64,000 nt of DNA from a virus (IMGVR_UViG_3300050014_000899), one strand, 5' to 3'; numbered from the stretch's first letter, positions 107 through 14,291 are shown. Numbers and translations: made by a program. Notes: a model not told the origin generated them from the letters alone.

Positions 107-640
107 ATGTTCTCCAGAGAAATGACCCCAATGACTCTTGGCATCGGAATTGAAGCCAAGATACAAGCAAGAATGGAAGGAATGGGTAAACTCAGAAAGG
201 GGTTACCGGATTCTATTGTATGGTCAATTCGTCATAATGAACGTGGGTTTTTTGAATATTTTTTAGCTCAGGAAGGAGCAATTGAAAAATGTTTGGAAAA
301 TTCAGATATTTCAAAAGAGATAGTTCATAAAAATGCTCATTGGGCTTTAAAGAGTATTGTGGAAAAATCCCCGGATAAAGCATCTATGAAAATTTTACCT
401 AAAGTCATTGTTAGAAATAACGGTAATATGCTTCAGCTTCTTTTAGAAAAATGGGGAGAATACTATAAGACCATGCAAGATTTCAAAAAGAGGTTATTTA
501 TGGCACTGTCTAATATGGATGGAACCAAAAAACTAAAACCGCCGACGATTAAGTCTTTGGAATACTTTTTTACTCTTGAAGAAATAGACGATATTCTGAT
601 CAAAAGAGGGCAGGCTCATGTAATAATTAACCTATCATGA
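107..640 (+). CDS. hypothetical protein with N-terminal F-x-R...P...L-x-IG motif
   Basis: ORF; MFSREMTPMTLGIG shared with paralogous N-termini. Confidence 0.7.
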   Translation: MFSREMTPMTLGIGIEAKIQARMEGMGKLRKGLPDSIVWSIRHNERGFFEYFLAQEGAIEKCLENSDISKEIVHKNAHWALKSIVEKSPDKASMKILPKVIVRNNGNMLQLLLEKWGEYYKTMQDFKKRLFMALSNMDGTKKLKPPTIKSLEYFFTLEEIDDILIKRGQAHVIINLS

Positions 641-978
641 ACTTTGAAAGAACAAATAATCCTTTAAAATCTCTTGATATTGGAAAAGATAGAATGCTCA
701 AAATTGGGGATTCTTTTACGGTTCATATCGGAGATATGAAAGTTCCAGTTGTTGCTACTTCTGATGAAACCAGAAATAAGCATTTCTATATGGAGAAAAC
801 CGATTGTTTTGGTCAAAAAGAATATACCGGATATGAGGTTCGACAGGTGGGGTACAATGGATCTTTATACATCGGAATTGCAGAATGGAGAGAAAATTGT
901 GAACACCCCAAATGGGAACATACAGATCATCCAGAAGATTTTCGAAAAATAAATCCAGAAGATGGAAGTTATATGTAG
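637..978 (+). CDS. hypothetical protein, FER..P..LDIG N-terminal motif family
   Basis: MNFERTNNPLKSLDIG; ATGA overlap with upstream gene. Confidence 0.75.
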   Translation: MNFERTNNPLKSLDIGKDRMLKIGDSFTVHIGDMKVPVVATSDETRNKHFYMEKTDCFGQKEYTGYEVRQVGYNGSLYIGIAEWRENCEHPKWEHTDHPEDFRKINPEDGSYM

Positions 979-1333
979 ATTTGAACGTAGAGCTGATCCG
1001 ATTAAAACATTAGATATTGGTAATGCTAGGATTCTTCGAAAAGGAGATATGTTTGAGGTTACCCTTCCCTATTTACTTTGTGATTGTGATTGTGATGGGC
1101 AAGGGTATACTCATAGATGCATTGCAGTCAAGGATGAAAAAACAATGATTCTGATGAATATAGGAAAGTATAAAATTCCTCAATTGGTGACTTCCGAAAA
1201 CAGGGACAGAATTAAAGATTATACTGAACGTAGGGAAATAGAATTTTATCTTCTTAATGTTGGATATGGAACAGCATATTTTGATGAAAAATTGAATATT
1301 TGGAAAATCGAAGAAAATGAATCGATAAGATGA
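962..1333 (+). CDS. hypothetical protein, FER..DP..LDIG N-terminal motif family
   Basis: RFERRADPIKTLDIG; related to 637..978. Confidence 0.75.
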   Translation: MEVICRFERRADPIKTLDIGNARILRKGDMFEVTLPYLLCDCDCDGQGYTHRCIAVKDEKTMILMNIGKYKIPQLVTSENRDRIKDYTERREIEFYLLNVGYGTAYFDEKLNIWKIEENESIR

Positions 1334-1406
1334 ACCTTTAACGAACTTTTAACGTTTAAAATTTTTTTACTAAGAAAACTTTTCGTATAATTGCACTATT
1401 AAACAT

Positions 1407-1493
1407 AATCTGCTTGTGTCTTTGTGAGCAAGGAATCAATGATTACCGGTCTGGATTTTAAATTCAGCGGCGGGAACTAACAGCAAGCAGATT
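1407..1493 (+). ncRNA. putative small structured RNA
   Basis: 10-bp closing stem AATCTGCTTG/CAAGCAGATT, just after TATAATTG promoter-like motif (1386) and followed by a U-tract. Confidence 0.4.
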
Positions 1494-1511
1494 TCTTTTT
1501 ATTTTTGTTTA

Positions 1512-2063
1512 ATGGAAAATTTAATTTATGGTCTTTATTGTCCTATAAGAAAAAAACCAGTTTATGTTGGTCAAACTACTAAAGGAATTGATAGACCCTT
1601 TCAACATATAAAAGAACGATCTCATAGTAAAAAAGTTAATGAGTGGGTTCATGAATTAAAGAAGGATGGATTAACTCCAATAATAGTAATTTTGGAGACT
1701 TTTGAAGATTCTTCATTGTTGGATGATAAAGAAAGATTTTGGGTTCAGAAATTTTTAAACGAAGGCGAATTACTTTTAAATCAACAATTAGTATCCCCTT
1801 TAATTTTAACAGTAGCTGAATTTTCAGAACAGAGGGAAACAACATTTAAAGATGAATTAGCTTTATTTGTTAAGGGAAGGAGAAAAATTTTAAATTTAAC
1901 TCAGCAAAGATTTTGTGAAAAGACTGGGATTGGATTAAGATTTCTTCGAAGTGTTGAGCAAGGAAAATTCAAAAAAGATAATTTTAGTACGAAATCAATT
2001 GAAACTGTACTTTATTATTTAGGAGCAAGATTAACTATAGGACCTTATAAAAAAGAAGAATGA
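1512..2063 (+). CDS. GIY-YIG nuclease fused to XRE-type HTH
   Basis: LIYGL...VYVGQT N-terminal; LTQQRFCEKTGIGLRFLRSVEQG HTH. Confidence 0.75.
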   Translation: MENLIYGLYCPIRKKPVYVGQTTKGIDRPFQHIKERSHSKKVNEWVHELKKDGLTPIIVILETFEDSSLLDDKERFWVQKFLNEGELLLNQQLVSPLILTVAEFSEQRETTFKDELALFVKGRRKILNLTQQRFCEKTGIGLRFLRSVEQGKFKKDNFSTKSIETVLYYLGARLTIGPYKKEE

Positions 2064-2275
2064 AATTATTTCTCTTAAAAAGAAAATTCGATGGATTTGA
2101 TCACTGGGATGTTACAATGGGTCTCGTGGTCGCTGCAGATAATGAAAATGATGCTTGGGAAGTTAATGGAGCAATCAATTTCAATCTTGACCGTCAAGAG
2201 GTAGAAATAACAGAATTAGGGGGAGCAAACCCAAACATTGAAAGAGGAATTATTTTGGAAGATTATAAAAGCTAA
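2060..2275 (+). CDS. hypothetical protein
   Basis: ORF in operon context. Confidence 0.6.
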   Translation: MKLFLLKRKFDGFDHWDVTMGLVVAADNENDAWEVNGAINFNLDRQEVEITELGGANPNIERGIILEDYKS

Positions 2276-2280
2276 ATAAG

Positions 2281-2625
2281 ATGTTAACAGAAAAAAATAC
2301 CGTACTTTTACCTCTTGAAGATTATAATGATCTTAGAGATTTTAAACAGAATCTTGAAAAAAATAATTCTGCTCGAATTACAGGAGGCAGATACAGTGGT
2401 GGAAACTCTTACACTTTTGTGTCTACAGAAGAAACGGTAAAATTGGCTACAAAATTTAATGATGAGCTGATTAAGGAAAATAATGAATTAAGATCTAAAG
2501 TTTCAGAATTGCAAACTTTGAAGGATCTTCCAAAACCGGCACCAGTACCGTTAAACACATACCAACTTAATGAACTCAAAAATATGACAATTTGGGAGTT
2601 CAGAAAATGGAAAAAACAAAAATAA
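2281..2625 (+). CDS. hypothetical protein
   Basis: ORF in operon context. Confidence 0.6.
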   Translation: MLTEKNTVLLPLEDYNDLRDFKQNLEKNNSARITGGRYSGGNSYTFVSTEETVKLATKFNDELIKENNELRSKVSELQTLKDLPKPAPVPLNTYQLNELKNMTIWEFRKWKKQK

Positions 2626-2669
2626 AAATAATTTTACATTAAGTTAAAACTTTTCGGGAAAATCCCGTA

Positions 2670-2676
2670 ATATATA
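2670..2676 (+). promoter_or_regulatory. ATATATA phage promoter-like motif for tRNA operon 1
   Basis: same motif precedes leader 2, the head genes and most homing endonucleases. Confidence 0.55.
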
Positions 2677-2701
2677 GAGAAACTAATAAATACTACAGCA
2701 A

Positions 2702-2806
2702 ATGACAAGGCGTGCAAATATGGATAATTTCGTGGATTGGGGCTTTAATAGAGCAGCCAATAAAGACGGAGGTTATGGATGCCCGCTAAGGTGGAGAGGT
2801 ATTTAA
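2702..2806 (+). CDS. leader peptide 1 (MTRRANMDNFVDWGFNRAANKDGGYGCPLRWRGI) of tRNA operon attenuator
   Basis: 34-aa ORF between promoter and terminator; codons 3-24 encode only amino acids whose tRNAs follow; GGATGCCCGCT (2777-2787) is complementary to the terminator 5' arm. Confidence 0.8.
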   Translation: MTRRANMDNFVDWGFNRAANKDGGYGCPLRWRGI

Positions 2807-2833
2807 CGAGGTAGTTAAAAAAATCTTTATATT

Positions 2834-2866
2834 AAGCGGGATCCCAACAGGTCCCGCTTTTCTTTT
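2834..2866 (+). terminator. attenuator terminator of tRNA operon 1
   Basis: AAGCGGGATC-ccaaca-GGTCCCGCTT then TTCTTTT, immediately before the first tRNA sequence. Confidence 0.85.
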
Positions 2867-2878
2867 GATTAAAATTAT

Positions 2879-2911
2879 GGAGCTTAAGCTAATCTAGTGA
2901 AAGCACTAACT
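2879..2911 (+). pseudogene. truncated tRNA 5' half (Phe-like D arm)
   Basis: GGAGCTT-AA-GCT-AATCTAGTGAA-AGC then no anticodon or T arm. Confidence 0.45.
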
Positions 2912-2933
2912 CATCTAAATTTCTCTACTTTAT

Positions 2934-3020
2934 GGTCTCAGGAGCTGCTAGGCGTGGCTGCCGGACTGTCACTCCGGAACAGGTAAAACTGACAGGTGGG
3001 TTCGAATCCCATTGAGACCG
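2934..3020 (+). tRNA. tRNA-Asp(GTC), long variable arm
   Basis: ccgga-CT GTC AC-tccgg; T arm gtggg TTCGAAT cccat. Confidence 0.85.
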
Positions 3021-3075
3021 CAACAAATATGCTCGGTAAAGCCTCTTATGATAAATAACGTAACTGAGTACTTAT

Positions 3076-3152
3076 AGGGGTGTAGTTCAAGTGGTAGAAT
3101 AGTGGTCTCCAAAACCAAAGGTTTGCGGGTTCGAGTCCTGCCACCCCTGCCA
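3076..3152 (+). tRNA. tRNA-Trp(CCA)
   Basis: cloverleaf, loop CT CCA AA, encoded CCA end. Confidence 0.92.
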
Positions 3153-3242
3153 GAGATTTAGTATATGTGAAGACTTGAAGGACTTTGGCCCTTGATTTTA
3201 GAGCTTACATACTTTCATGCCAATGAAGGAACTAAATCACAA

Positions 3243-3316
3243 GGGGAATTAGCTCAGTTGGCTAGAGCACCTGCCCTGCAAGCAGGGGGTCACGAGTTCG
3301 ACTCTCGTATTCTCCA
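3243..3316 (+). tRNA. tRNA-Ala(TGC)
   Basis: G3:U70 pair; loop CC TGC AA (C33). Confidence 0.9.
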
Positions 3317-3360
3317 CTCGAGGATGTTCGGCATCATTCAACTCATTCCAAGAAGGTGTC

Positions 3361-3447
3361 AAGTAACGAATGTCTAAGTTAAGTCACAGCGGCCGTACCT
3401 ATAACGGTCAAAATTTCATGCTCGGGCTTTTTTCCGGTTCGTTACTT
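3361..3447 (+). ncRNA. hairpin RNA displaying a 23S rRNA helix-69 mimic
   Basis: closing stem AAGTAACGAA/TTCGTTACTT; GGCCGTACCTATAACGGTC at 3391-3409 matches H69 at 18/19. Confidence 0.6.
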
Positions 3448-3450
3448 TAT

Positions 3451-3523
3451 GCGCTTTTAGCTCAGATGGTAGAGTAGGTGCCTCTTAAGCATCGGGTCCA
3501 GGGTTCGATCCCCTGAAGGCGCA
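3451..3523 (+). tRNA. tRNA-Lys(CTT)
   Basis: ggtgc-CT CTT AA-gcatc. Confidence 0.92.
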
Positions 3524-3608
3524 CAAATGAAAGTGAACGGCGCGTCTACCGTTTAATGATTACCGACAAGTTGAAAAAGTCTTGGGCTATAACAGCTTTC
3601 ATTTATTT

Positions 3609-3684
3609 GGGACGTAGGTCAAACGGTTAAGATGTCGGCCTGTCACGCCGTACGGAGCGGGTTCAACTCCCGTACGTCCCGCCA
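3609..3684 (+). tRNA. tRNA-Asp(GTC)
   Basis: loop CT GTC AC; GCCA end. Confidence 0.92.
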
Positions 3685-3786
3685 ATATGTAGTAAGAAAA
3701 GGGTTACATCGGTTATGATTGGTTCGATTCCAATTTTACCCTGCGAAAGCTCGGGTGAATTAAAGCTCTTTTCAATTTTCTCATAT
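3685..3786 (+). ncRNA. Y RNA (YrlA)-like RNA 1
   Basis: GTAGTAA..GGGTTACATCG...CTC..TTTTCTC scaffold enclosing a T arm and loop-closed acceptor stem. Confidence 0.6.
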
Positions 3787-3792
3787 CGTTTT

Positions 3793-3866
3793 GTCGATAA
3801 TAGTTTAATGGTAGAATATCCAGCGGTAAAACGAGGGAAGGAACCGGTTCGATTCCGGCTAAGACT
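3793..3866 (+). pseudogene. degenerate tRNA-like element
   Basis: D arm TAGTTTAATGGTAGAATA and T arm CCGG-TTCGATT-CCGG, no regular anticodon arm. Confidence 0.5.
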
Positions 3867-3869
3867 CCT

Positions 3870-4019
3870 GGGAGTATAGCTCAATGGTAGAGCAATTGGC
3901 TGTCTACAGACAGAAGTGTCTGAATAAAAACTTTAGGTGAAGTCTTATGAAGTTAAAGGAATCAAAATCCTCTTCATCTGCTAACCAATAGGTTCTGGGT
4001 TCGAGTCCCTGTGCCCCCG
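3870..4019 (+). tRNA. tRNA (Asn-like body) interrupted by a 78-nt insert in the anticodon loop
   Basis: attgg-CTGT[3904-3981]TAA-ccaat; intact D and T arms; G73. Confidence 0.7.
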
Positions 4020-4086
4020 CTAATAACTAATAAGCAAAAAGATAAAAGTTCGAAACTTTTTCTGAATATATAGTAAAAGATATATT

Positions 4087-4806
4087 ATGAAGAGTTGCGA
4101 AAATTGTCAAAAAGAGCATGAAGGAACTTATGGTTCTGGAAGATTTTGTTCAGCTGAATGTGCTAGGGGATTTAGCACAAAAGAAAAACGTTCTTTGATA
4201 AATGAAAAAATAAGCAAAAAAATGAAAGGATCGGGACATTCTGATATAAAAATAATTTGTCCTATATGCCAAACAGAATTTGAAGTTTCATGGAATAAAA
4301 GAAATCAAAAATTTTGTTCACGAAATTGTTCAATGAGATTTTCTAATTCTCAACCAGAAAATATAAAAAATTTATCTTTAAAAAGAATCAACAAAATACT
4401 TAAAGGACAAGTAAATGATTATGGTATAAAGATGATATATAAATTCAAAAATAAGGATATTAAATGCGATTCAAAAATAGAATTTGCTTGTTTAAATTTT
4501 TTTGAAACTAAAGAGGCATCAGAGATGGAAAGATGCAATCTAATTATTGAATATAAGGATAAAGATAAAATAAGAAGATTTAATCCGGATTTTAAAATAA
4601 AAATAGATAATAATATTTATATTGTTGAAGTTAAGAGTTATATGAGTATTAAATCTATAAATGAAAAATGGCGAAATTATAATGAATTATCTAAATTGAA
4701 AAAAGAAGCTTTAATAAATTTTTGTCAATTAAATAACTATATTCCCTTTTGGTTTACAAAAGATTTAAACAGAAATTTTTATAATAATGTTTCGGTCGTA
4801 CTATAA
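4087..4806 (+). CDS. free-standing homing endonuclease, Zn-binding N-terminus plus PD-(D/E)XK (TnsA-like) domain
   Basis: CxxC...FCSxxC repeats; DSKIE...FNPDF...IVEVK. Confidence 0.75.
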   Translation: MKSCENCQKEHEGTYGSGRFCSAECARGFSTKEKRSLINEKISKKMKGSGHSDIKIICPICQTEFEVSWNKRNQKFCSRNCSMRFSNSQPENIKNLSLKRINKILKGQVNDYGIKMIYKFKNKDIKCDSKIEFACLNFFETKEASEMERCNLIIEYKDKDKIRRFNPDFKIKIDNNIYIVEVKSYMSIKSINEKWRNYNELSKLKKEALINFCQLNNYIPFWFTKDLNRNFYNNVSVVL

Positions 4807-4864
4807 TTGGTCAGACTGCACTCTGTTAAAGTGAATAATGTAGGTTCGAATCCTACCCGAAACG
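4789..4864 (+). tRNA. tRNA-Asn(GTT)
   Basis: cact-CT GTT AA-agtg; acceptor GTTTCGG/CCGAAAC; irregular D stem; overlaps endonuclease stop. Confidence 0.75.
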
Positions 4865-4938
4865 CCGCGCCGCCCAAAGGACGGATGCCCTGGTCACACA
4901 AAACCGTATTTGTGCAACTCACCTACGGGGTGAGTATT

Positions 4939-5175
4939 GCCCTGGTAGTTTAACTGGAGGAGGAACATGAAGTTATTAAATGCTCTCAACACTCAGCGCT
5001 GAGATGTTGGTCAAAGAGACATCAGACCTGATAAAAAAGTTAGGGAGGTGCAAAGGCATTTATTAAAGAATGGTGGAATAGCTTGCCATCCAAATTTAAT
5101 TTATGCTGGTAATAGACATTCCGAGAATTCTGGATTCGTTCAGAGGTGTGGGTTCGATTCCCGCTGGGGGTTCCA
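4939..5175 (+). ncRNA. giant tRNA-like RNA (anticodon arm replaced by about 165 nt)
   Basis: 5' acceptor and D arm; 3' T arm gtggg TTCGATT cccgc plus TCCA end. Confidence 0.55.
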
Positions 5176-5183
5176 ATTTTAAA

Positions 5184-5256
5184 GTTCTTTTAGCTCAGTT
5201 GGAAGAGCGCTTCCGTGACATGGAAGAGGCCGTAGATTCGAGTTCTACAAGGAACA
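5184..5256 (+). tRNA. tRNA-Val(GAC)
   Basis: cttcc-GT GAC AT-ggaag. Confidence 0.9.
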
Positions 5257-5261
5257 CAAAC

Positions 5262-5337
5262 AGCGACATAGCTCAGTGTGAGAGCGCTCCCGTTCATAGG
5301 GAGAGGTGCGGAGGTTCAATTCCTTCTGTCGCTACCA
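5262..5337 (+). tRNA. Met-like tRNA with aberrant anticodon loop GTTCATA
   Basis: full cloverleaf with ACCA end; central triplet TCA, CAT off-register. Confidence 0.55.
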
Positions 5338-5338
5338 A

Positions 5339-5440
5339 GGGAGTATAAGCTGTTAGATGCATAAACAGCCATACGGGAGAACGGCGAATTTGGTGCTAAG
5401 ACCATCATCCGCTGAGAGGGTTCGAATCCCTTTACTTCCA
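5339..5440 (+). tRNA. non-canonical Ala-acceptor tRNA-like RNA
   Basis: GGGAGTA/TACTTCC-A (G3:U70), T arm, no D arm, TGC in the first hairpin loop. Confidence 0.5.
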
Positions 5441-5505
5441 CGAAATTCACTGTGAAGGTGAAATTTAATTTTCTTTCCAAAAGTTCGAACATAAGAAAGA
5501 AGATT

Positions 5506-5580
5506 TGCGATATAGAGCAGTGTTAGCTCGCTCCCGGGAAAAGGGAGAGGTCGGAGGTTCAATTCCTTCTGTCGCGACCA
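5506..5580 (+). tRNA. initiator-like tRNA body with loop GG GAA AA
   Basis: paralog of 5262..5337; GAGC/GCTC D stem; ACCA end. Confidence 0.55.
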
Positions 5581-5654
5581 GTTCCTTTAGCTCAGCTGGA
5601 AGTAGCGCCACCCCTACATGGTGGATGTCATAGGTTCGATCCCTATAAGGAACA
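5581..5654 (+). tRNA. tRNA-Val(TAC)
   Basis: ccacc-CC TAC AT-ggtgg (C33). Confidence 0.85.
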
Positions 5655-5655
5655 C

Positions 5656-5795
5656 AAACTGTAGTAAAACAGCGAGTTACTTCGTATTCCAAACGACTAG
5701 TCTAGGTGCAAATCCTGGGTCCCCTGCCAAAATTACTTAGGGGATTAGTGTAATAGATAGCACAGTAAAAACACTCAAGTTAAATTTCTCAGTTT
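5656..5795 (+). ncRNA. Y RNA (YrlA)-like RNA 2 containing a circularly permuted tRNA-Trp-like domain
   Basis: scaffold GTAGTAA..GAGTTACTTCG...CTC..TTTCTC; order T arm, GTCCCCT-GCCA-linker-AGGGGAT, D arm. Confidence 0.65.
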
Positions 5796-5957
5796 ACGGG
5801 AATGAAACTATTAGGGGGCGGAACCCTTTTATCCACAGTAGGAATAGTGATAAGGAAGCAGGCCGATCACCTGAGTGAGTTCGATTCTCACCATTTCCAC
5901 TAGTAGACCGTTATAATTTCATAGGACTCACATTGGAGAGTACAGCGTAGAAATTAA

Positions 5958-6031
5958 TGGGACACATGTTCCAAGGCAAGGCGAATGAGTTTTGCAAACT
6001 TGTTGGGAGGTTTCGATTACCTTTGTCTCCA
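5958..6031 (+). tRNA. tRNA-Ala(TGC), atypical D arm
   Basis: tgagt-TT TGC AA-acttg; G3:U70; A73. Confidence 0.65.
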
Positions 6032-6036
6032 CACAC

Positions 6037-6132
6037 TGCGGAAGAGTGAAACGGATAGAGATTTTAATTAATTTCGCTATCATCCAGGGCTCATAACCCT
6101 CGGGATATTGGGTTCGACTCCCATTTCCGCTA
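6037..6132 (+). tRNA. tRNA-fMet(CAT) with insertion in the D loop
   Basis: GGG-CT CAT AA-CCC; 1:72 mismatch; enlarged D loop. Confidence 0.75.
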
Positions 6133-6249
6133 CTAAAAACAAATGGCAGCACAACACCTAAAGGGACGCTTTTAAGGTAGTGGCCGAAGCATCGAAAATC
6201 AGAAATGACCTGCCGATGTAAAAAACGAATCCGGGCGTTTGTTTTATAT

Positions 6250-6336
6250 GCCGTCGTGCCAGAGTGGCCAATCGGGGAGGGCTCATATCCCTTGGCTTTT
6301 ATAGCCCCATAGGTTCGAATCCTATCGACGGTACCA
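6250..6336 (+). tRNA. tRNA(CAT) with long variable arm
   Basis: gaggg-CT CAT AT-ccctt; GGCT-tttat-AGCC arm; ACCA end. Confidence 0.8.
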
Positions 6337-6352
6337 AATTTAATGTATAAAA

Positions 6353-6859
6353 ATGTATTATACAATTTACAAAACTACGAATAAATTTAATGGCAAGTTT
6401 TATATCGGAAAGCATCAGACTCAGAAATTAAATGATAATTATTTAGGGTCTGGAAAAGCTTTGGAACTGGCTATTAAGAAATACGGTAAAGAGAATTTTC
6501 AAAAAAGAATTATTTTTGTTTTTGATAATGAAATTTTAATGAATCAAAAAGAAAAAGAAATTGTTACAGAGAATTTTATATCCAGCAATACAAATTATAA
6601 TTGTGGGGTTGGGGGAGAAGGAGGAGCTCAATTCTTAAATAAATCTCACTCTGAAAAAACTAAAAAATTGCTTGCTGAAAAAGCTAAATTAATAAAGCCC
6701 TCTAAAGAAACTAGAGATAAAATATCAGAGGGTAATAGAAAAAGAACATTATCTAAAGAAACAAGAAATAAACTCTCTCAAAAATCTTTCGAGAGATGGA
6801 AAAAATTGCGGGTTGGAGAAAATAGTCATCTCATTGGGCTCATAACCCAAGGTTGCTAG
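6353..6859 (+). CDS. GIY-YIG (Seg-like) homing endonuclease with NUMOD3 repeats
   Basis: TIYKTTN..GKFYIGKH...YLGSG; HSEKTKK repeats. Confidence 0.85.
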   Translation: MYYTIYKTTNKFNGKFYIGKHQTQKLNDNYLGSGKALELAIKKYGKENFQKRIIFVFDNEILMNQKEKEIVTENFISSNTNYNCGVGGEGGAQFLNKSHSEKTKKLLAEKAKLIKPSKETRDKISEGNRKRTLSKETRNKLSQKSFERWKKLRVGENSHLIGLITQGC

Positions 6860-6882
6860 GGCGGTACTAGTGCCCGCTACCA
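6807..6882 (+). tRNA. tRNA-fMet(CAT)
   Basis: ttggg-CT CAT AA-cccaa; 1:72 mismatch; overlaps 3' end of endonuclease ORF. Confidence 0.8.
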
Positions 6883-6887
6883 ATTAA

Positions 6888-6999
6888 GCTGTAGTAACTG
6901 TAAGAATTACTTCGTTGAGTTCGATTCTCAATTTTCCCGCCAGATTTTAAAGGGAAAATCGCCACAAAGGGTGGCATTATTCTTCTAATTTTTCTCAGC
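6888..6999 (+). ncRNA. Y RNA (YrlA)-like RNA 3
   Basis: GCTGTAGTAA..GAATTACTTCG, T arm, loop-closed acceptor stem, TTTTCTCAGC. Confidence 0.6.
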
Positions 7000-7055
7000 G
7001 AAAATACATGCCGGATGACCCCCGTTGTATCACGGTGCCGGCTCCAATAAGGTCA

Positions 7056-7128
7056 GATCTCGTAGCTCAGTTGGTAGAGCACATCCCTTTTAAGGATGGG
7101 GTCCTGGGTTCGAGCCCCAGCGGGATCA
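7056..7128 (+). tRNA. tRNA-Lys(TTT)
   Basis: catcc-CT TTT AA-ggatg. Confidence 0.93.
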
Positions 7129-7129
7129 C

Positions 7130-7235
7130 AATCGTAGTAATGGAAAGAGTTACTTCGTGCTAATGGTTAGCAAAATCCTGTTAAGATTACTTCGCGGTTC
7201 AATTCCGCCTGTTACCTCTTCCGATTTTCTCGATT
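7130..7235 (+). ncRNA. Y RNA-like RNA 4 carrying D, Asn(GTT) anticodon and T arms
   Basis: same scaffold; TGCTAATGGTTAGCA, aatc-CT GTT AA-gatt, gcgg TTCAATT ccgc. Confidence 0.6.
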
Positions 7236-7237
7236 AT

Positions 7238-7312
7238 GGGAGCTTAGCTCAGTTGGTTCAGAGCATCTGCCTTACAAGCAGAGGGTCGAGGGTTCGAATC
7301 CCCCAGTTCCCA
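7238..7312 (+). tRNA. tRNA-Val(TAC)
   Basis: tctgc-CT TAC AA-gcaga. Confidence 0.93.
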
Positions 7313-7401
7313 CATAACGTATAAAATAATATACGTTAACTAAGAAAAAGGGACTTAATGTATAATATTTTATCCGTTATGACCCGATAATATCCGATAA
7401 T

Positions 7402-7474
7402 GGTCCGGTAGCTCAATGGATAGAGCACCTGCCTTCTAAGCAGGTGGTTGAGAGTTCGAGTCTCTCCCGGATCA
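7402..7474 (+). tRNA. tRNA-Arg(TCT)
   Basis: cctgc-CT TCT AA-gcagg. Confidence 0.93.
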
Positions 7475-7481
7475 CTAATTT

Positions 7482-7556
7482 GGTCTCATAGTACAACGGA
7501 TAGTGCGCGAGTTTCCTAAACTTGAAATCCGGGTTCGATTCCCAGTGAGATCACCA
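7482..7556 (+). tRNA. tRNA-Arg(CCT)
   Basis: cgagt-TT CCT AA-acttg; ACCA end. Confidence 0.9.
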
Positions 7557-7570
7557 AATAATTTATAAAC

Positions 7571-7804
7571 ATGACTCATACTCTTAAGCAAATTGTTAAG
7601 GGTAATACTGCTCGCTTTTCATATGCATGCGAAGGGAAGCTCTATTACACTATTGAAGTAGAAGAATCAGTATATCAAGTAGAATTGGACAGTACCGCCG
7701 ATGAATGGAGGGCAACATATATGACCCCAACTTTTCCTGCCATCACTCTTATGAGATGGATCAGAAAAGGTATGGAAAATGAAAAATTTATTCAGATAAA
7801 GTAG
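7571..7804 (+). CDS. hypothetical phage protein
   Basis: ORF after tRNAs. Confidence 0.65.
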   Translation: MTHTLKQIVKGNTARFSYACEGKLYYTIEVEESVYQVELDSTADEWRATYMTPTFPAITLMRWIRKGMENEKFIQIK

Positions 7805-7825
7805 ACAACTTTAGGATATTTTTCG

Positions 7826-7833
7826 TATATTTG
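7826..7833 (+). promoter_or_regulatory. Bacteroidota RpoD -7 element (TAnnTTTG)
   Basis: TATATTTG; same motif at 17628, 21190, 30283, 40633. Confidence 0.6.
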
Positions 7834-7837
7834 TCCC

Positions 7838-8269
7838 ATGGTAATTCACGAAATATTGAAGGAACATGGGATTTTTAGTAATGACATAAAAGTCAAAATT
7901 AAAAATGGCCAGATTAAATTAAATGGAGAAGTTGTTACGGATCCTTTAATGGATTTGGATATTGAATTCGTGAAGAAGGAGGACCGGCCTACCAAAGAAA
8001 CCCCTGCATTTGAAGATGCTGGAAATTTTCTTTTCAGAGCAATTAGTAAAGACAAAGAATGTTTTGACTTATGTACAGCTATGGGGGTTGATGGATTGGG
8101 TATTCATCCAGAATTTTGGCCAGATTTGAATTTTACCAACAAACTAGTTGAAAAATTTAGAAAGGTTTATGTCTTAAAGATTTCTAAAAAAGAATGGATC
8201 ATACTCCAGAAAAAAGAAGTTGAAATTGAAACGGAAGAATTTTTAATATTGAAGAAAAATGATTGTTAA
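7838..8269 (+). CDS. hypothetical protein, possible S4-like RNA-binding N-terminus
   Basis: IKVKIKNGQIKLNGEVVTD resembles the S4 motif. Confidence 0.45.
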   Translation: MVIHEILKEHGIFSNDIKVKIKNGQIKLNGEVVTDPLMDLDIEFVKKEDRPTKETPAFEDAGNFLFRAISKDKECFDLCTAMGVDGLGIHPEFWPDLNFTNKLVEKFRKVYVLKISKKEWIILQKKEVEIETEEFLILKKNDC

Positions 8270-8492
8270 AAAAAGAACTGATAAGATTGAAGTTGACCTG
8301 ACAGGTCCGCATGGAAATGCTTATGCTCTTTTAGGATTAGCAAGTGATATTTGCAAGAATTTAAATCGTCTTGCAGGAAAAGAATTATATGACTTCAAAG
8401 AAATTGAAAAAGATATGAAGAGTTCTGATTATGAACATCTTTTGGAAGTTTTGGAAGAACACTTTGGTAACTTTATAATATTATACAGATGA
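8259..8492 (+). CDS. hypothetical phage protein
   Basis: DLTGPHGNAYALLG...MKSSDYEHLL. Confidence 0.65.
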   Translation: MIVKKRTDKIEVDLTGPHGNAYALLGLASDICKNLNRLAGKELYDFKEIEKDMKSSDYEHLLEVLEEHFGNFIILYR

Positions 8493-8896
8493 GATTTGCA
8501 AATGATCCAGCGGAGCCAACAACTCCCACGAACCCGAAATTATCTTCGATAGCTTATACATTGTCAAAATTGACTGTATTGGAAGCTAAAGAATTAGCTG
8601 ATATACTTGAAAACGATTTTGGTATCAAGAAAGCTAAAACAGAGTTTAAACCTGCAGGATATGAACCTGTTCCTGAAGTGGAACAAACTGAATTCAATGT
8701 TTACCTCAAAGAAATTGGCAATCAAAAATTGCAGGTTATAAAAAAGGTCCATGAAGTAATGGGATTGGGTCTTAAAGAAGCCAAAGCATTGGTTGATTCT
8801 ACCCCCTGTCTTTTAAAAGAAAAGATTTTAAAAGCTGAAGTAACAACCATAAAAGCCGAATTGGAAAATGTCGGAGCAGTAGTGGAAGTGAGATGA
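8489..8896 (+). CDS. rplL: ribosomal protein bL12 (L7/L12)
   Basis: LTVLEAKELADILE; EQTEFNVYL..KLQVIKKV..GLGLKEAKALVD; LENVGAVVEV. Confidence 0.9.
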   Translation: MRFANDPAEPTTPTNPKLSSIAYTLSKLTVLEAKELADILENDFGIKKAKTEFKPAGYEPVPEVEQTEFNVYLKEIGNQKLQVIKKVHEVMGLGLKEAKALVDSTPCLLKEKILKAEVTTIKAELENVGAVVEVR

Positions 8897-9180
8897 AATT
8901 AAAGAACCTCATATTAGCATTAAAAGATCAAGGTCCGCTTAAAAGAGCTTTTCGAAACTTCTTTATAACTGGAAATGCATGGGGTTTATTTTCCATAAAC
9001 TCTCACATAAGGCAGGATACTCAAAAGCCAAAGGTGACTTATAATACTCAAGAAACAGCTGCTAAATCAGCTATCAGTTTGGGTAAGAAAAATGGGGTTC
9101 ACTTTAGCTATTACAAATGTGCTTACTGTGATGGTTATCATATCGGTAAGAATAGAGACAATAAAACAAATGAAAAATAG
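8893..9180 (+). CDS. hypothetical protein with C-terminal Zn motif
   Basis: YKCAYCDGYHIG. Confidence 0.6.
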   Translation: MKLKNLILALKDQGPLKRAFRNFFITGNAWGLFSINSHIRQDTQKPKVTYNTQETAAKSAISLGKKNGVHFSYYKCAYCDGYHIGKNRDNKTNEK

Positions 9181-9571
9181 AGCAAAAGGTTTTTATTGGG
9201 TTCAATATGCAAATTTATCTTGGGTAGTTTGCGAATGGGATGGTGTCCAATGGCATCACCAAGGGGCAAGTTATCCGGATGAAAGTTTTAAACAGATTCA
9301 TGAGATAAGAATTGAGCCTCCAAAACCCAAAGATGTTAGAAATTCCGATGGTATATGGACTCCAGAATGTTTAATTTTTTAAAATGAGAATAATAATCAC
9401 AGCTGAAGAAGCAATCGATAAAGGAATCTGGGAAGATTTATGCGACATGGTCGGATACAGTTATTATGCAGTTAACGAAGGTATGGACCCTGATACAGAA
9501 ATTTCTTTAACAGAGGATCAAGCAAGACAGCTGGGAGTAATACCTGCAAAAAATAGTATTTCCTGGGACTA

Positions 9572-10206
9572 ATGAAAGCATATCACACAATACAGAAATA
9601 TACCGAGGATCACTATGGAAAGTTTGTATGGGCTTTCGATAAGGTAGATGGATCTAATTTCAGGTAGAGTGGGATAGAAAACTTTCAAAGAAAAGCCAGT
9701 TTACATTTGGATTCAAAAAATTCGGGACAAGAACCGAAATGATAATGAACAACAGAAATCCATTTATTGAAGCTGTTACTTTGTTTGAAATGGAATATGC
9801 TCCAAAATTTGACCAGATTTTTAAAGACGCAAAAGAGCTAAGAGGAGTTCCGATAATTACCTTATTTGGAGAGTTTTATGGTCCAGGTAGCTTTGCAGGT
9901 ATGCACGATTGGAACGCTACCCATAGTTTAACATTTTTCGATGCGGCAATATATAAGAAGGGATACCTTCCTCCATCAGATTTTCAAAATCTATTTGGAG
10001 AACTCCCCATACAAAAACTTATTTGGAAAGGAATTTTCAATGAGGAATTTGTAAAAAGAGTAGAAGCCAATGAATTCGGACTTTCCGAAGGAATAGTTTA
10101 CAAGGGCGTTGAAGACGGAGATGTCTTTATGGGCAAAATCAAAACTCTTCAATGGCTCGAAAGTATAAGAAATAAGTACGGTATCAAAAAAATGCTAGAG
10201 TACTAA
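9572..10206 (+). CDS. ATP-dependent RNA ligase-like nucleotidyltransferase, frameshifted near 9664
   Basis: motif I DKVDGSNFR upstream of the shift; LFGEFYG, FFDA, EGIV, MGKIK downstream. Confidence 0.7.
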
Positions 10207-10393
10207 TGGAAGATTTCAAAAAGAAGCGAAAAGATCTTCGCGATCGAAAAAGAGAAGCAATGAACGAGGAATATAAATCCGCCAAAGAAAGAAAAGGGGT
10301 TGTTAACACATTTAAAAGAGAATCCAGATCCATTAAGAGATCTGAGAAAAATGAAATAAAGAAAGTTCTTCGGAACGATTTTGGAATTTAAAC

Positions 10394-10469
10394 GCGCCGG
10401 TATCACGCCTCGCTACGAACGAGGAGAAGTGTAATTGGACACATGAGGGTTCGAATCCCTTTCGGCGTT
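10394..10469 (+). tRNA. non-canonical tRNA-Arg(ACG) lacking a normal D arm
   Basis: cctcg-CT ACG AA-cgagg directly after the acceptor strand; TAATTGG after the anticodon arm; T arm. Confidence 0.65.
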
Positions 10470-10637
10470 CTAATGGGTAAAGTGTTATACGGTCTGAAGC
10501 CCGGGTTTGGGAAATGAATCATCAGAGTACCTCAGGTCTATAAAATAACACAAGAGGGGAATCTTTTCAGATGATCAATCCTTCAAAGACGCTGAATTTA
10601 TCCAGGTGGGAAGGGTTCGCCCGATTCTCACCAAATT

Positions 10638-10709
10638 GCGGAGGTAGTATAACGGTTAGTATAGGGCCTTGCCAAGGCTCAGATGGGTTTTCGATTAACC
10701 TTCTCCGCA
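10638..10709 (+). tRNA. tRNA-Gly(GCC)
   Basis: gggcc-TT GCC AA-ggctc. Confidence 0.85.
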
Positions 10710-10761
10710 CAAAGTAGCAAAATTGGTAGAGCGCATGTGAATATATATAGAAAATATTCGC

Positions 10762-11568
10762 ATGCTACCAAGAAATAAAAAAAATTGTGAAAAATGCAAT
10801 AAAGAAATAAGTTTGTCTAATTTTAATTTGCATTATTCTTCATGTAAAGGAAATATAGAAGAAACAAAGATAAGAGTAAAAGAAGAATGGAAATTGGTCA
10901 ACGGAAAATACAAATGTCCATATTGTAATAAAGAGTATTCGAAGAATGGAATTTCTACACATATTATAAGAAATCATACCGAAAAAGGAAAAGGGCAAAA
11001 TCCCAATATTGGTTTTTTAAAGGAAACCCAAATTATTTGGAATAAGGGGTTATCAAAGGAAACAAATAAAAGTCTTGAAAATCTTTCAAAAACATTATTA
11101 AAAAAATATAAATCTGGAGAATTAAAATCCGGATTTAAAAATAAAAAACATAATAAAATATCATGTGAAAAAATGTCTAAAAGTGCTATTCTAGCATTTC
11201 AAGAAGGAAGACATTCTGGATGGGTTTCAAGAAAAATACAAAGTTATCCTGAGATATATTTTGAAAAGGTTTTAAAAAGCAAAAAGTTATTTGAAGAATG
11301 TATCCCTGAATATTTTATTAAACATAAAAACAATTCTAATTATTTTTTGGATTTTTATTTTCCAAATAAAAGGATTAATTTAGAAATTGATGGCTCTCAA
11401 CATGAATTGGAAGATCGAAAAATATCTGATAATCAAAGAGATAATTTTTTATCAGAACAAAATATATTTGTTTTTAGAATAAAATGGAGAAACCCAAAAT
11501 CATTAGATGGTAAAAAATATTTGGAGAATAAAATAAAAGAATTTATTGAATTATACAAGCGGAAGTAG
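10762..11568 (+). CDS. homing endonuclease, Zn finger plus DUF559/Vsr-like nuclease
   Basis: KCPYCNKEY..THIIRNH; YFLDFY...LEIDGSQH..DNQRDNFL. Confidence 0.8.
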   Translation: MLPRNKKNCEKCNKEISLSNFNLHYSSCKGNIEETKIRVKEEWKLVNGKYKCPYCNKEYSKNGISTHIIRNHTEKGKGQNPNIGFLKETQIIWNKGLSKETNKSLENLSKTLLKKYKSGELKSGFKNKKHNKISCEKMSKSAILAFQEGRHSGWVSRKIQSYPEIYFEKVLKSKKLFEECIPEYFIKHKNNSNYFLDFYFPNKRINLEIDGSQHELEDRKISDNQRDNFLSEQNIFVFRIKWRNPKSLDGKKYLENKIKEFIELYKRK

Positions 11569-11631
11569 CTCAGTTGGTAGAGCACCGTCCTTCCACGTCG
11601 GGGGTCGCGAGTTCGAACCTCGTCTTCCGCT
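11559..11631 (+). tRNA. tRNA-Gly(TCC)
   Basis: GCGGAAGTAGCTCAGTTGGTAGAGC; loop CT TCC AC. Confidence 0.9.
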
Positions 11632-11638
11632 CAATTTT

Positions 11639-11710
11639 GCCTCTATGGTGTAATGGATAACATGGGTGACTTCGGATCATCTGTTACGGGTTCGAATCCT
11701 GTTAGGGGCA
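11639..11710 (+). tRNA. tRNA-Arg(TCG)
   Basis: ggtga-CT TCG GA-tcatc. Confidence 0.88.
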
Positions 11711-11731
11711 CAACTTTTTTAAACTAAAATA

Positions 11732-12031
11732 ATGAATTATACAAATTATATTTTAAGCGGAAACTCTATCAATATCAATTCTCTCATCTCCAAAAAAAGA
11801 TACTTAAAACCAATAACTATTACAATTGCTATTCCAGTAGCTATAGTAGGATTTCTAGCATTTTCGGGAATATTACCAGCAACCTATATAATAGATCGTG
11901 TTAAAGAAGGAGAAATTAAATATCTTAAAGTTATAAGAAAATATAAAAGAAACAAAGAGTTTCAAGCTTTTTTAGAAACCATTTCAGATGATAAAGAAGA
12001 AATGAAAAGAATCAAAAAAATGTATCATTAA
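11732..12031 (+). CDS. hypothetical membrane protein
   Basis: one hydrophobic segment. Confidence 0.55.
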   Translation: MNYTNYILSGNSININSLISKKRYLKPITITIAIPVAIVGFLAFSGILPATYIIDRVKEGEIKYLKVIRKYKRNKEFQAFLETISDDKEEMKRIKKMYH

Positions 12032-12330
12032 TCATGAAAAAATTATTCGATGGTCATTAGGTAAGAAAGTTACCTAAAATAAGACCATTATGAGAAGAAG
12101 ACATTATTTGAAAACGACTCAAATACTTGAGCACACCACAAATCGTAGAGAATTTAAAATTCTTACCACCGTTGATCAAGATCCATATCCTGAAGAGTAT
12201 GGGTATTACCAAAAGCACAAATGGGGATTCAGAGGATGCAGAAAGTCCAGATTAATCTGGAAACATCAAGTAAGAATGTATCGTACTTGGAAGCATAATA
12301 GAAAAACCCAGTATAAATATAATAAAAACG

Positions 12331-12723
12331 ATGGATATATCCACAATAACGAAGGAACAATTTGATTTAGCTTATAATAAGTTTCAACCAAATGCTTGGG
12401 TCAAATTTGGATTTAAGTACTTTTCTAATAGTACTTTAAAAGAAAATTTCAAAATAAAGAAAACTGTAACTTGGATTCTCGGTGTTCTTTTTGGAATTGG
12501 TTTTTTAGCAACTGTAATTGGATTACCGCACAATGTAATTGCAGTTCCTGTTCTAATATATTCAGGAATTATTGTTATTTTAGCTATTATTATGGGGGGA
12601 TCCGCTCTAATGAATAATCTGAGAATTAAAAAAATTCAGAAAGAATTAGGAGTAAACATTTGGCAATATGAAGCTTTAGTAAATATGTTTTATCCAACCC
12701 CTATCAACCCACTTCAAAATTAA
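12331..12723 (+). CDS. hypothetical membrane protein
   Basis: two hydrophobic segments. Confidence 0.65.
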   Translation: MDISTITKEQFDLAYNKFQPNAWVKFGFKYFSNSTLKENFKIKKTVTWILGVLFGIGFLATVIGLPHNVIAVPVLIYSGIIVILAIIMGGSALMNNLRIKKIQKELGVNIWQYEALVNMFYPTPINPLQN

Positions 12724-13310
12724 TGAATAAATTGAGTCCTTTTCTTCAATACAAGGACATCCTTGAGAAATATTTGTCTCCTAAAACCATTTTTAAATTA
12801 AAGGAGGCTTGGAATGAACCCAGAAGAAGGTATCATAATGAAGATCACTTATATCAGATTTTAAAAGATCTCGAAAAAAGTAAATCAAAAGTATCTTCAG
12901 TTCAATGGGAATCTTTAGTAATAGCCGCTTTCTTTCACGATGCTATTTATGTTCCGGGGAATTCCAATAACGAGGATCAGTCCATTAAAGTTTTCTTAGA
13001 GTCTTTTTTAGGAAAAAGATTTGATATGGTTAAAGCTATTAAAGAAATGATCAAAGCAACTCAATTTAGAGTGGTTCCAGCGGATAAACTAGTTAAGATT
13101 TTTTGGGAAGCAGATAATGCAGGATTCCAGGGACCATTTGAAAGTTTTTTAGAAACCGAGAAGAAGATTAGATTAGAGTTTGGACATGTTTCTTTGCATA
13201 CTTATAAGAAAGGAAGACTAAAGTTTCTCAATTCCTGTTTAGGATTAATGGGGCCAAAAGCAGACGAAAACGTCTCAAAACTAATCGAGTACATAGAAAA
13301 AAATTACTAA
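12723..13310 (+). CDS. HD-domain phosphohydrolase
   Basis: EPRRRYHNEDH...AAFFHDAIY..NEDQS. Confidence 0.8.
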   Translation: MNKLSPFLQYKDILEKYLSPKTIFKLKEAWNEPRRRYHNEDHLYQILKDLEKSKSKVSSVQWESLVIAAFFHDAIYVPGNSNNEDQSIKVFLESFLGKRFDMVKAIKEMIKATQFRVVPADKLVKIFWEADNAGFQGPFESFLETEKKIRLEFGHVSLHTYKKGRLKFLNSCLGLMGPKADENVSKLIEYIEKNY

Positions 13311-13369
13311 TTTTAACGTTTTTTCTTCAAAAATATTTTTTTTCTAAGTAAAATAATTGTACATTTACT

Positions 13370-13813
13370 ATGAAATTAAAAATAAGAGATATGAGAACCA
13401 CAGGCGTTATCGAATTCGAAGGATTTAAATTCAAAAATACAGAATTTCAATTTAAGAACAAGAAAGAGATGAACAGCTTTTTTAATGAGGTTCTTATTGA
13501 TAGTCCTCAGAGATTCATTAATACTTTGGATCGTTGGAATTTGGAAAATATGCACATTGCGTTTTCACAATTTATGCTGATGAAAGTTATTGCTTTTTCA
13601 GGTCTTGGAATGGGATTAGTATCAATACTTGCAAAGCTTCCGTCAATTGTTGGAATTGGTTTCGTAGTAATGGCAGCAGTTAATTATATTGCAAGCAAAA
13701 AAGCCGAAAAAAGACTTGATAACATCAACTACAGCAGAGGAGATTATGAAATGATGGCTGAAGGACTTGATGAAGTTCGTGAAGATTTAATAAAAGAAAA
13801 AAATTCAAAGTAA
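13370..13813 (+). CDS. hypothetical membrane protein
   Basis: two hydrophobic segments. Confidence 0.6.
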   Translation: MKLKIRDMRTTGVIEFEGFKFKNTEFQFKNKKEMNSFFNEVLIDSPQRFINTLDRWNLENMHIAFSQFMLMKVIAFSGLGMGLVSILAKLPSIVGIGFVVMAAVNYIASKKAEKRLDNINYSRGDYEMMAEGLDEVREDLIKEKNSK

Positions 13814-13848
13814 TACAAAACCTAAGCATTTTTACGTATATAAGATAG

Positions 13849-13855
13849 ATATATA
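13849..13855 (+). promoter_or_regulatory. ATATATA promoter-like motif for tRNA operon 2
   Basis: same motif and near-identical spacing to ATG as for leader 1. Confidence 0.55.
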
Positions 13856-13879
13856 AAGAAACAACAAAAAGTTAAAACA

Positions 13880-13957
13880 ATGAAAAGGCAGTCCATACAT
13901 ACGATTAGTATTACCTCATCACACGATAAGGGCGGCCTTTTTATGACTAGACTTTAG
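13880..13957 (+). CDS. leader peptide 2 (MKRQSIHTISITSSHDKGGLFMTRL) of tRNA operon attenuator
   Basis: 11 consecutive Ser/Ile/His/Thr codons before a Ser/His/Thr/Ile-only tRNA operon; GGCCTTTTT (13934-13942) can pair with the terminator 5' arm. Confidence 0.85.
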   Translation: MKRQSIHTISITSSHDKGGLFMTRL

Positions 13958-13982
13958 TACTAAGATATTAAATGATTTATTC

Positions 13983-14015
13983 AAAGGAAGGCTCCAATCA
14001 GTCTTCCTTTTTTTT
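13983..14015 (+). terminator. attenuator terminator of tRNA operon 2
   Basis: AAAGGAAGGCT-ccaatc-AGTCTTCCTTT plus T-run, 5 nt before tRNA-Ser. Confidence 0.85.
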
Positions 14016-14020
14016 GTTTT

Positions 14021-14106: not shown

Positions 14107-14122
14107 CTAGAAAATAAAATAT

Positions 14123-14212: not shown

Positions 14213-14215
14213 CAA

Positions 14216-14285: not shown

Positions 14286-14291
14286 GGTTAT

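Follow-up and report, generated by a model that had tools for sequence, protein, structure and literature searches.

A candidate leader-peptide attenuator in front of a tRNA array of a Lak-like megaphage

Why phages carry tRNA genes, and how these genes are regulated, are long-standing questions; the current ideas on such genes are codon compensation and evasion of tRNA-targeting defences (for the latter see PMC10264068). Both questions are raised by the 64,000-nt stretch of viral DNA IMGVR_UViG_3300050014_000899 (called the window below, meaning the whole stretch at its full length), in which an array of tRNA genes (array A, 2934-11711, plus strand) is preceded by a small open reading frame (ORF) made up largely of codons that these same tRNAs would read. 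Why should such a reading frame be found there? Judging from the sequence, we consider it probable that the unit at 2646-2868 is a ribosome-mediated (leader-peptide) transcription attenuator, located between a phage promoter and the tRNA array. If so, the finding bears on both questions.

Leader codons and the predicted RNA switch

Unit A (2646-2868, plus strand) consists of a promoter-like motif, a 34-codon ORF, a putative antiterminator strand and a putative terminator, in that order. The promoter-like motif (AAAACTTT, a spacer and TATATA; 2646-2676, plus strand) is located about 25 nt upstream of the leader ATG. This combination occurs three times in the window (at 2646, 13817 and 22071), where 0.63 copies are expected, and the same type of motif also precedes the leaders of related phages (see below). 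The third copy (22071-22098, plus strand) is found 17 nt before an ORF (22115-22693) of another kind than the short leaders. In unit A, the leader ORF (leader A, 2702-2806, plus strand) opens at the first ATG downstream of the motif and runs for 34 codons from ATG to TAA.

The composition of this ORF is its most conspicuous property. Codons 3-24 (the control region, 2708-2773, plus strand) encode exclusively Arg, Ala, Asn, Met, Asp, Phe, Val, Trp, Gly and Lys, so that 22 codons in a row are confined to the ten amino acids that the downstream array serves, as a preliminary description of the locus had claimed. Among 7,615 stop-to-stop segments, covering all six frames of the window, no other run built from this ten-residue set is as long, the runner-up having 12 residues. 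Because the set accounts for a fraction of 0.508 of the residues in window ORFs of at least 120 amino acids, the chance of such a run is about 3e-7 per position. The correspondence extends to the level of the anticodons (tRNAs were called with ARAGORN and with Rfam covariance models, the latter by cmscan of positions 1-17000 with E up to 1). A cognate anticodon is present in array A for 21 of the 22 codons of the control region, and if codon 2 is included the count is 21/23, versus only 1/23 for the second tRNA array of the window (array B). Each of the ten amino acids occurs one to four times, with varied isoacceptor codons; for instance, the Arg codons AGG, CGT and AGA are each read by a different Arg isoacceptor of array A, so that the earlier claim on this point holds at the codon level.

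The leader is followed by a strong candidate terminator, consisting of a hairpin (2834-2859, plus strand; strand 3, 2834-2843, and strand 4, 2850-2859; ten pairs, -15.8 kcal/mol) and a U tract (2860-2868, plus strand). It is the top-ranked plus-strand terminator in positions 1-17000 and lies 75 nt upstream of the first tRNA gene; the second-best is the hairpin behind the leader of array B. The possibility that hairpin 2834-2859 terminates the upstream gene was considered and rejected, because the promoter-like motif separates the stop codon of that gene (2625) from the leader.

We also found the alternative pairing that an attenuator needs. The preliminary description had proposed that 2777-2787 (strand 2, plus strand, within leader codons 26-29) pairs with 2835-2844 in the 5' arm of the terminator, and this antiterminator was recovered in two ways, by folding without the terminator 3' arm and by a duplex search (ten pairs, one bulged G, -13.0 kcal/mol, z = -3.95 against shuffles). 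In the minimum-energy fold of the full-length leader, 2774-2787 pairs instead with strand 1 (2709-2722, plus strand) and the terminator forms. As both alternative pairings and the terminator were found, the classical four-strand layout (1:2, 2:3 and 3:4) is present, in which the 1:2 pairing is predicted to sequester strand 2 when the leader is free of ribosomes. Another predicted hairpin (2791-2830, plus strand), situated between strands 2 and 3, includes the stop codon of the leader, and an equivalent is predicted in most leaders of the same type in relatives. In a crude thermodynamic model in which a 30-nt ribosome footprint was masked codon by codon, the antiterminator was kept with codons 1-23 in the A site and lost from codon 24 on, and this point of loss coincides with the end of the control region.

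At the level of the sequence, all features of a ribosome-mediated attenuator are thus present: a short ORF that can be translated and is located after the promoter and ahead of the first structural gene, leader codons that correspond to the regulated product, an intrinsic terminator before the first structural gene, and a mutually exclusive antiterminator with a 5' strand that a translating ribosome could cover. The cmscan search (1-17000, E<=1) gave no match to the Rfam leader families (Trp, His, Leu, Thr, Phe) or to the T-box at 2640-2930 or 13817-14020, and returned tRNA-clan matches only, apart from two weak minus-strand Plastid-ycf2 matches over tRNA genes. For lack of an Rfam match, the T-box and the known Rfam leaders were rejected as the identity of the unit.

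Matched units in the window and in related phages

A companion unit (unit B, 13817-14010, plus strand) precedes array B and consists of the motif (13817-13855), a 25-codon leader (13880-13957) and a predicted terminator (13983-14010). Array B (14021-15017, plus strand) encodes three Ser, two His, two Thr and two Ile tRNAs, which are the amino acids of an 11-codon run in leader B. This Ser/Ile/His/Thr run is the maximum of the window in six frames (the next has 7 residues), and both leader runs are found directly upstream of the matching array. The amino-acid sets of the two control regions and of the two arrays are disjoint, as had been claimed. Unit A had also been described as a second, independent attenuator; it is indeed a switch separate from unit B, but the promoter motif and the architecture are common to both, and the two units may therefore be old paralogues rather than independent inventions. 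Directly before the antiterminator strand, leader B has Asp-Lys-Gly-Gly-like codons (13925-13936), which are also found in the B-type leaders of two relatives (L041 and L043).

The capsid and head-maturation genes of the window indicate that its source is a giant, Lak-like megaphage. The capsid protein (ORF 38080-39834) has 46-47% identity over 98% of its length to those of the Prevotella megaphages Lak-A, Lak-B and Lak-C and 70-82% identity to those of 30-odd IMG/VR contigs, and a gene for a head-maturation protease (PHROG match) adjoins it. An IMG/VR search with the ORFs flanking the two units (2281-2625 and 13370-13813) yielded no close relatives, and an exact look-up of the protein of the window's first ORF and an exact 39-mer scan of metagenome contigs, both aimed at the DNA upstream of the window, gave no match. 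Relatives were gathered via the capsid matches: 23 IMG/VR records were searched for tRNAs and the array regions of eleven were taken. In these we scanned for a terminator at most 300 nt upstream of a tRNA together with a short ORF that ends just before the terminator, and the remaining array starts were inspected.

The comparative set consists of 19 units (ten A-type, eight B-type and one C-type) from the window and ten related contigs, which bears out the expectation that arrays of relatives are also preceded by matched leaders. Besides that of the window, the A-type leaders are those of L041 (2210-2320, plus strand), L043 (13079-13180, minus), L040 (2202-2309, plus), L044 (10813-10911, minus), L045 (1695-1790, plus), L038 (5255-5362, minus), L048 (17719-17811, minus), L050 (210-308, plus) and L047 (13440-13535, minus). 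The B-type leaders are, next to that of the window, those of L041 (14225-14299, plus), L043 (2655-2735, minus), L040 (16047-16121, plus), L045 (11487-11543, plus), L046 (10971-11039, plus), L050 (9185-9247, plus) and L037 (12413-12472, minus). The single C-type leader (L039, 10369-10479, minus) belongs to the complete 405-kb relative G001. It corresponds, in a relative, to the third leader that the preliminary description had predicted for the missing Leu, Pro, Glu, Gln, Tyr and Cys tRNAs: codons for Leu, Pro, Gln, Glu, Tyr, Cys and Phe are abundant in it, and the array behind it encodes tRNAs for Cys, Gln, Phe, Leu (five), Pro, Tyr and Glu, a CUA-anticodon tRNA, and tRNAs for Met and Gln. In Lak-like phages that recode TAG, a CUA-anticodon tRNA is expected. 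This tRNA, which would read UAG, is carried by the relatives G001 and G002 (L039 and L042), and the arrays of the window have a UCA-anticodon tRNA instead.

Although the leader sequences diverge, the design is kept across the ten related megaphage contigs, and the ORF, its start and its stop are present in all 19 units. Where the array includes a tRNA for an amino acid, this amino acid is found in the control region of the leader in 119 of 124 cases, versus 50 of 237 for amino acids without a tRNA in the array (odds ratio 89 over the 19 units, phylogeny being ignored). Trp, a rare residue, is found in all ten A leaders and in all ten A arrays. More telling are tRNAs that have changed array. 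The six genomes with His tRNA in array B have His codons in their B leaders and none in their A leaders; in the group of G001, L048, L050 and L047, His tRNA is part of array A, and His codons are present in leader A and absent from both available B leaders, so that codons and tRNA are concordant in 18 of 18 units. Similarly, the three genomes that have Phe in array A show Phe codons in leader A, and G001, which has Phe in array C, shows them in leader C (L047 and L048 are exceptions), and in L047 the gain of Leu and Ile tRNAs in array A is accompanied by a gain of Leu and Ile codons in the leader. Among the three closest A leaders, 28 of the 32 differing residues remain within the amino-acid set of the array, versus 41% expected for random nonsynonymous changes, and selection therefore acts on which tRNA reads the codon and not on the chemistry of the peptide. 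Taken at the sequence level, these data support the view that leader composition follows tRNA content as tRNAs move between arrays.

The RNA elements are conserved as well. In 19 of 19 units the terminator 5' arm is complementary to the end of the leader ORF (z between -1.4 and -5.7), with the complementary segment at nt 67-93 in A leaders and at nt 54-73 in B leaders. Leaders bind their own terminators better than permuted ones: in 20,000 permutations the mean observed for type A was never reached, nor was that of the full set of 19 units, and for type B p = 0.006. When the ten A units are aligned with MAFFT, pairing in the antiterminator helix amounts to 77.6%, versus 36-50% when it is slid by one to three columns, and four of its pairs show double changes (for instance C-G to U-A in three sequences), by counts that ignore shared ancestry. 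The terminator helix is 81.6% paired on the same alignment, comparable with the antiterminator helix.

Three more matched units were found in the huge phage LR756500 (41% capsid identity), all on the minus strand: L058 (19312-19386) before His, Glu, Val, Trp and Leu tRNAs, L056 (5252-5368) before Ala, Leu, Pro, Tyr, Gln, Gly, Thr and Gly tRNAs, and L057 (9426-9572) before Asn, Asp, Arg, Met and Arg tRNAs. By the criteria of a terminator and a short ORF, no convincing leader precedes the tRNA clusters of Lak-A1, which is not evidence of absence, as this genome is very AT-rich and recodes TAG. In a subgroup of the relatives (L037, minus strand, around 11900-12100; L050, 9370-9540; and L048, L051 and L047), a conserved structured RNA and a tRNA-like gene are located between the terminator of leader B and the Thr/Ser tRNAs; the window has a similar sequence at 22687-22890.

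Mechanism, alternatives and relation to known attenuators

We propose the following mechanism. Transcription would start a few bases past the TATATA box and a ribosome would translate the leader, in which codons 3-24 sample the ten amino acids and nearly all anticodons of the downstream tRNAs. If one of the charged tRNAs is scarce, its codon would be decoded slowly and the ribosome would stall before about position 2774, leaving strand 2 free to pair with strand 3 as this emerges; the terminator hairpin would then be blocked and the polymerase would read into the tRNA genes. If decoding is fast, the ribosome would cover strand 2 while strands 3 and 4 are made, so that the terminator forms and transcription ends at 2860-2868. 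The net effect would be a negative feedback with OR logic, in which a shortage of any single tRNA of the array would be enough for the array to be made. Such a shortage could result from a mismatch between host tRNAs and the codon usage of the phage, or from loss of host tRNAs during infection.

Several observations weigh against this mechanism. In the close relative L041, array A has lost its central part, with the Ala, Asn, Val, Met and two Arg tRNAs (region 3700-7600), and the leader nevertheless keeps, and even gains, Ala, Val, Asn, Met and Arg codons. Ile codons are found in several A leaders for which no Ile tRNA is seen in the array, leader C holds four Ser codons, and the B leaders start with Lys/Arg (codons 2-3) and carry the Asp-Lys-Gly-Gly codons, all foreign to array B. 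These codons of the B leaders, of which the Asp-Lys-Gly-Gly set belongs to the amino acids of array A, may be spacers or reflect cross-talk between units. According to the crude folding model, the antiterminator forms in most units even when no ribosome is present. The leader stop codon is located 16 nt past strand 2, and a ribosome at the stop codon would leave strand 2 uncovered, so that termination would depend on the timing of ribosome passage. Shared ancestry inflates the covariation counts, and the antiterminator helix is therefore supported but not proven. The Asn and Phe tRNAs of the window are non-canonical and may not work, and the Gly tRNAs are found 7.7-8.7 kb downstream, past about a dozen ORFs, their co-transcription being unproven.

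The last point is the basis of an alternative that we regard as possible, if tentative, namely that the switch is real but limited to the proximal tRNA block (2934-7556), with the distal genes (10394-11711) and the intervening ORFs transcribed from other promoters and the Gly codons of the leader being an ancestral leftover. The blocks are indeed separated by about 2.8 kb of ORFs, including an L7/L12 homologue, and in relatives such as L040 and L044 the array opens with a Gly tRNA, so that the leader roster may predate a rearrangement. On the other hand, all genes between the blocks are co-directional, and neither a strong plus-strand terminator nor a leader-type promoter was found between 2868 and 13817. 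In most relatives array A still ends with the distal Arg/Gly block, and all ten A leaders have Gly and Arg codons. The preliminary description had assumed internal promoters before the distal Gly and Arg genes. These may exist but were not confirmed, as sigma-70-like sites and the Bacteroidetes consensus TTTG...TAnnTTTG are no commoner than chance (searches based on consensus sequences); the leader-type motif is found only at the three positions given above.

It is also conceivable, and we think unlikely, that the same switch evolved in response to amino-acid starvation or general translation stress, with the extra tRNA being a by-product or, for instance, a buffer of uncharged tRNA. As is established for the trp and his attenuators, what a ribosome on a leader senses is charged tRNA, and such a sensor cannot separate a shortage of tRNA from a shortage of amino acid; the sequence evidence fits both signals equally. 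More tRNA does not, however, relieve amino-acid starvation, and selection for a roster that mirrors the array would therefore be hard to explain. Moreover, the roster follows the moves of tRNA genes (His and Phe) and matches the anticodons of isoacceptors, not only the amino acids. Less probable still, to the point that we give it little credence, is that the hairpin acts as a constitutive terminator or as a signal for RNA processing, the ORF being untranslated or encoding a peptide with a function of its own and the codon match being a by-product of composition or ancestry. No Shine-Dalgarno sequence is visible before the leader ATG, and a single phage clade supplies most of the comparative signal, as would suit this explanation. 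Against it, the run is unique in six frames, the ORF has a conserved start and stop in 19 units of diverged sequence, substitutions preserve membership of the amino-acid set and not the chemistry of the peptide, and strand 2 is always at the 3' end of the ORF and co-varies with the terminator arm. The unrelated-looking leaders of LR756500 show the same match, and the promoter-like motif between the upstream stop codon and the leader means that the hairpin does not belong to the upstream gene as its terminator.

The attenuation mechanism that we favour is known as a class: leader-peptide attenuation is a textbook mechanism of amino-acid and synthetase operons. The phage unit shares with the enterobacterial amino-acid attenuators (ilvGMEDA for Ile/Leu/Val, thr for Thr/Ile, and trpL, hisL, leuL and pheL) a short leader with regulatory codons, an intrinsic terminator and an antiterminator that uses the 5' arm of this terminator, and in both the position of the ribosome would decide which hairpin forms, for the phage unit as deduced from its sequence. 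Multivalent sensing would also be common to both. The enterobacterial leaders, however, have runs of one to three amino acids, whereas the phage leader samples ten amino acids and their isoacceptor codons; the phage element is moreover phage-encoded and has no match to an Rfam leader family. The genes under classical control encode amino-acid biosynthetic enzymes or aminoacyl-tRNA synthetases, and those downstream of the phage leader encode tRNAs, so that the sensor would read the supply of the very molecules under its control. Closest in target is the pheM leader of pheST, encoding phenylalanyl-tRNA synthetase of E. coli, a leader-peptide attenuator that responds to charged tRNA. As the phage unit would, it acts on a component of the translation apparatus, but its target is the gene of a synthetase protein and it senses one amino acid through a run of Phe codons, versus untranslated tRNA and a mixed roster in the phage. 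T-box riboswitches likewise read tRNA status and form a terminator/antiterminator switch upstream of translation-related genes. A T-box binds one uncharged tRNA directly via a specifier codon and needs no ribosome; the phage unit has a conserved translatable ORF and would read many tRNAs at once through the speed of decoding.

What appears to be new is therefore the target (tRNA genes), the roster of ten amino acids and multiple isoacceptors, and the sequence of the element itself. By full-text search we found no published leader-peptide attenuation of tRNA genes, in phages or in bacteria (subscription journals are thinly covered, and an earlier description is possible), and none of the Lak and huge-phage literature found in this way describes leader ORFs or attenuators before tRNA arrays. 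Two Lak-phage papers discuss tRNAs (PMC6784885, PMC8346664).

Extending the reading to other giant phages, we find it rather more plausible than not, though less secure than the assignment of unit A itself, that they regulate each tRNA block homeostatically: a roster leader would sample the codons of every tRNA, slow decoding would open the terminator, and only those tRNAs that are lacking in the infected cell would be topped up, for instance after degradation of host tRNAs or cleavage by an anticodon nuclease. The phage would then measure tRNA supply directly and switch the array on only when its own codons are decoded slowly. If true, this would be the first attenuator class with tRNA as its output, and one with a built-in sensor of host immunity that targets tRNAs; it would widen the scope of attenuation to genes for non-coding RNAs and to an OR gate with ten inputs. 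The roster would name the codons that the phage expects to become limiting, which makes the ideas of codon compensation and of escape from defence testable. In addition, leaders of this type could help to mark the limits of tRNA operons when phage genomes from metagenomes are annotated, and could serve in synthetic biology as a compact part that reports tRNA availability.

The tRNA array and its surroundings

The genes of array A are all located on the plus strand. The first group, called by ARAGORN and Rfam, contains Asp(GUC), Trp(CCA), Ala(UGC), Lys(CUU) and Asp(GUC) (2934-3684). Its first member (2934-3021) is an 88-nt Asp(GUC) tRNA with a long extra arm, which is unusual for Asp, and is conserved in L040 (2585-2673); the canonical Asp(GUC) tRNA comes later, at 3609. 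Further groups are Val(GAC), the UCA-anticodon tRNA, Phe(GAA) and Val(UAC) (5184-5655; ARAGORN), Met(CAU) (6250-6336; ARAGORN and Rfam), Lys(UUU), Val(UAC), Arg(UCU) and Arg(CCU) (7056-7556; ARAGORN and Rfam) and the distal Gly(GCC), Gly(UCC) and Arg(UCG) (10638-11711; ARAGORN and Rfam). The distal Gly tRNAs are the only ones that match the three Gly codons of leader A.

Three of the leader's cognates are less regular. A tRNA with an insert of 78-81 nt in the anticodon loop (3870-4019; Rfam 49.2 bits, ARAGORN and alignment) matches Asn(GUU) of relatives by gene order (L040 and L038). The insert is too short for a group I intron, and the register of its excision decides whether the tRNA is Asn(GUU) or has the anticodon GCU. 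A second, non-canonical Asn(GUU)-like tRNA (4789-4864), in which the acceptor and T arms are perfect and the D arm is aberrant, scores below the Rfam threshold (25.4 bits). Its start overlaps the end of the HNH endonuclease ORF, and its T arm and the next 40 nt (the tRNA and this stretch together span 4789-4903, plus strand) have 84-88% identity to short segments of unrelated phage records. In Phe(GAA), position 33 is occupied by G and not by U. Arg(ACG) (10394-10469), the cognate of the leader codon CGT, is non-canonical and lies right at the Rfam threshold (29.1 bits), its identity being read from the anticodon loop. Of the roster in the preliminary description, Asp, Trp, Ala, Lys, Val, Met, the four Arg and the two Gly tRNAs were thus recovered by ARAGORN or Rfam, with the qualification that Asn, Phe and Arg(ACG) are non-canonical.

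The UCA-anticodon tRNA (5262-5337), which would read UGA, and Phe(GAA) (5506-5580), both on the plus strand, are close paralogues with an identical T arm and a similar acceptor stem. The presence of the former raised the possibility of an alternative genetic code in the window (G+C content about 34%). This was rejected: reading TGA or TAG as sense increases ORF coverage only from 0.81 to 0.85, and TGA terminates 23 of 98 ORFs, so that the standard code fits. A small tRNA-like element with an acceptor and a T arm (5798-5902, plus strand) gives a sub-threshold match to the Rfam tmRNA model (26.6 bits versus a cut-off of 47).

The region of array A looks like a translation module, to judge from its gene content, as it also holds a homologue of ribosomal protein L7/L12 (8489-8896, plus strand; PF00542, E = 7e-23, and PF16320, E = 5e-7). 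Homing-endonuclease-like ORFs are located among the tRNA genes (4087-4806, 6353-6859 and 10762-11568, all on the plus strand), namely an HNH endonuclease (phrog_1271), a homing endonuclease (phrog_314) and an ORF with a zinc finger and DUF559. In this respect the window resembles the tRNA arrays of other huge phages (Lak and relatives), which are likewise large and interspersed with homing endonucleases.

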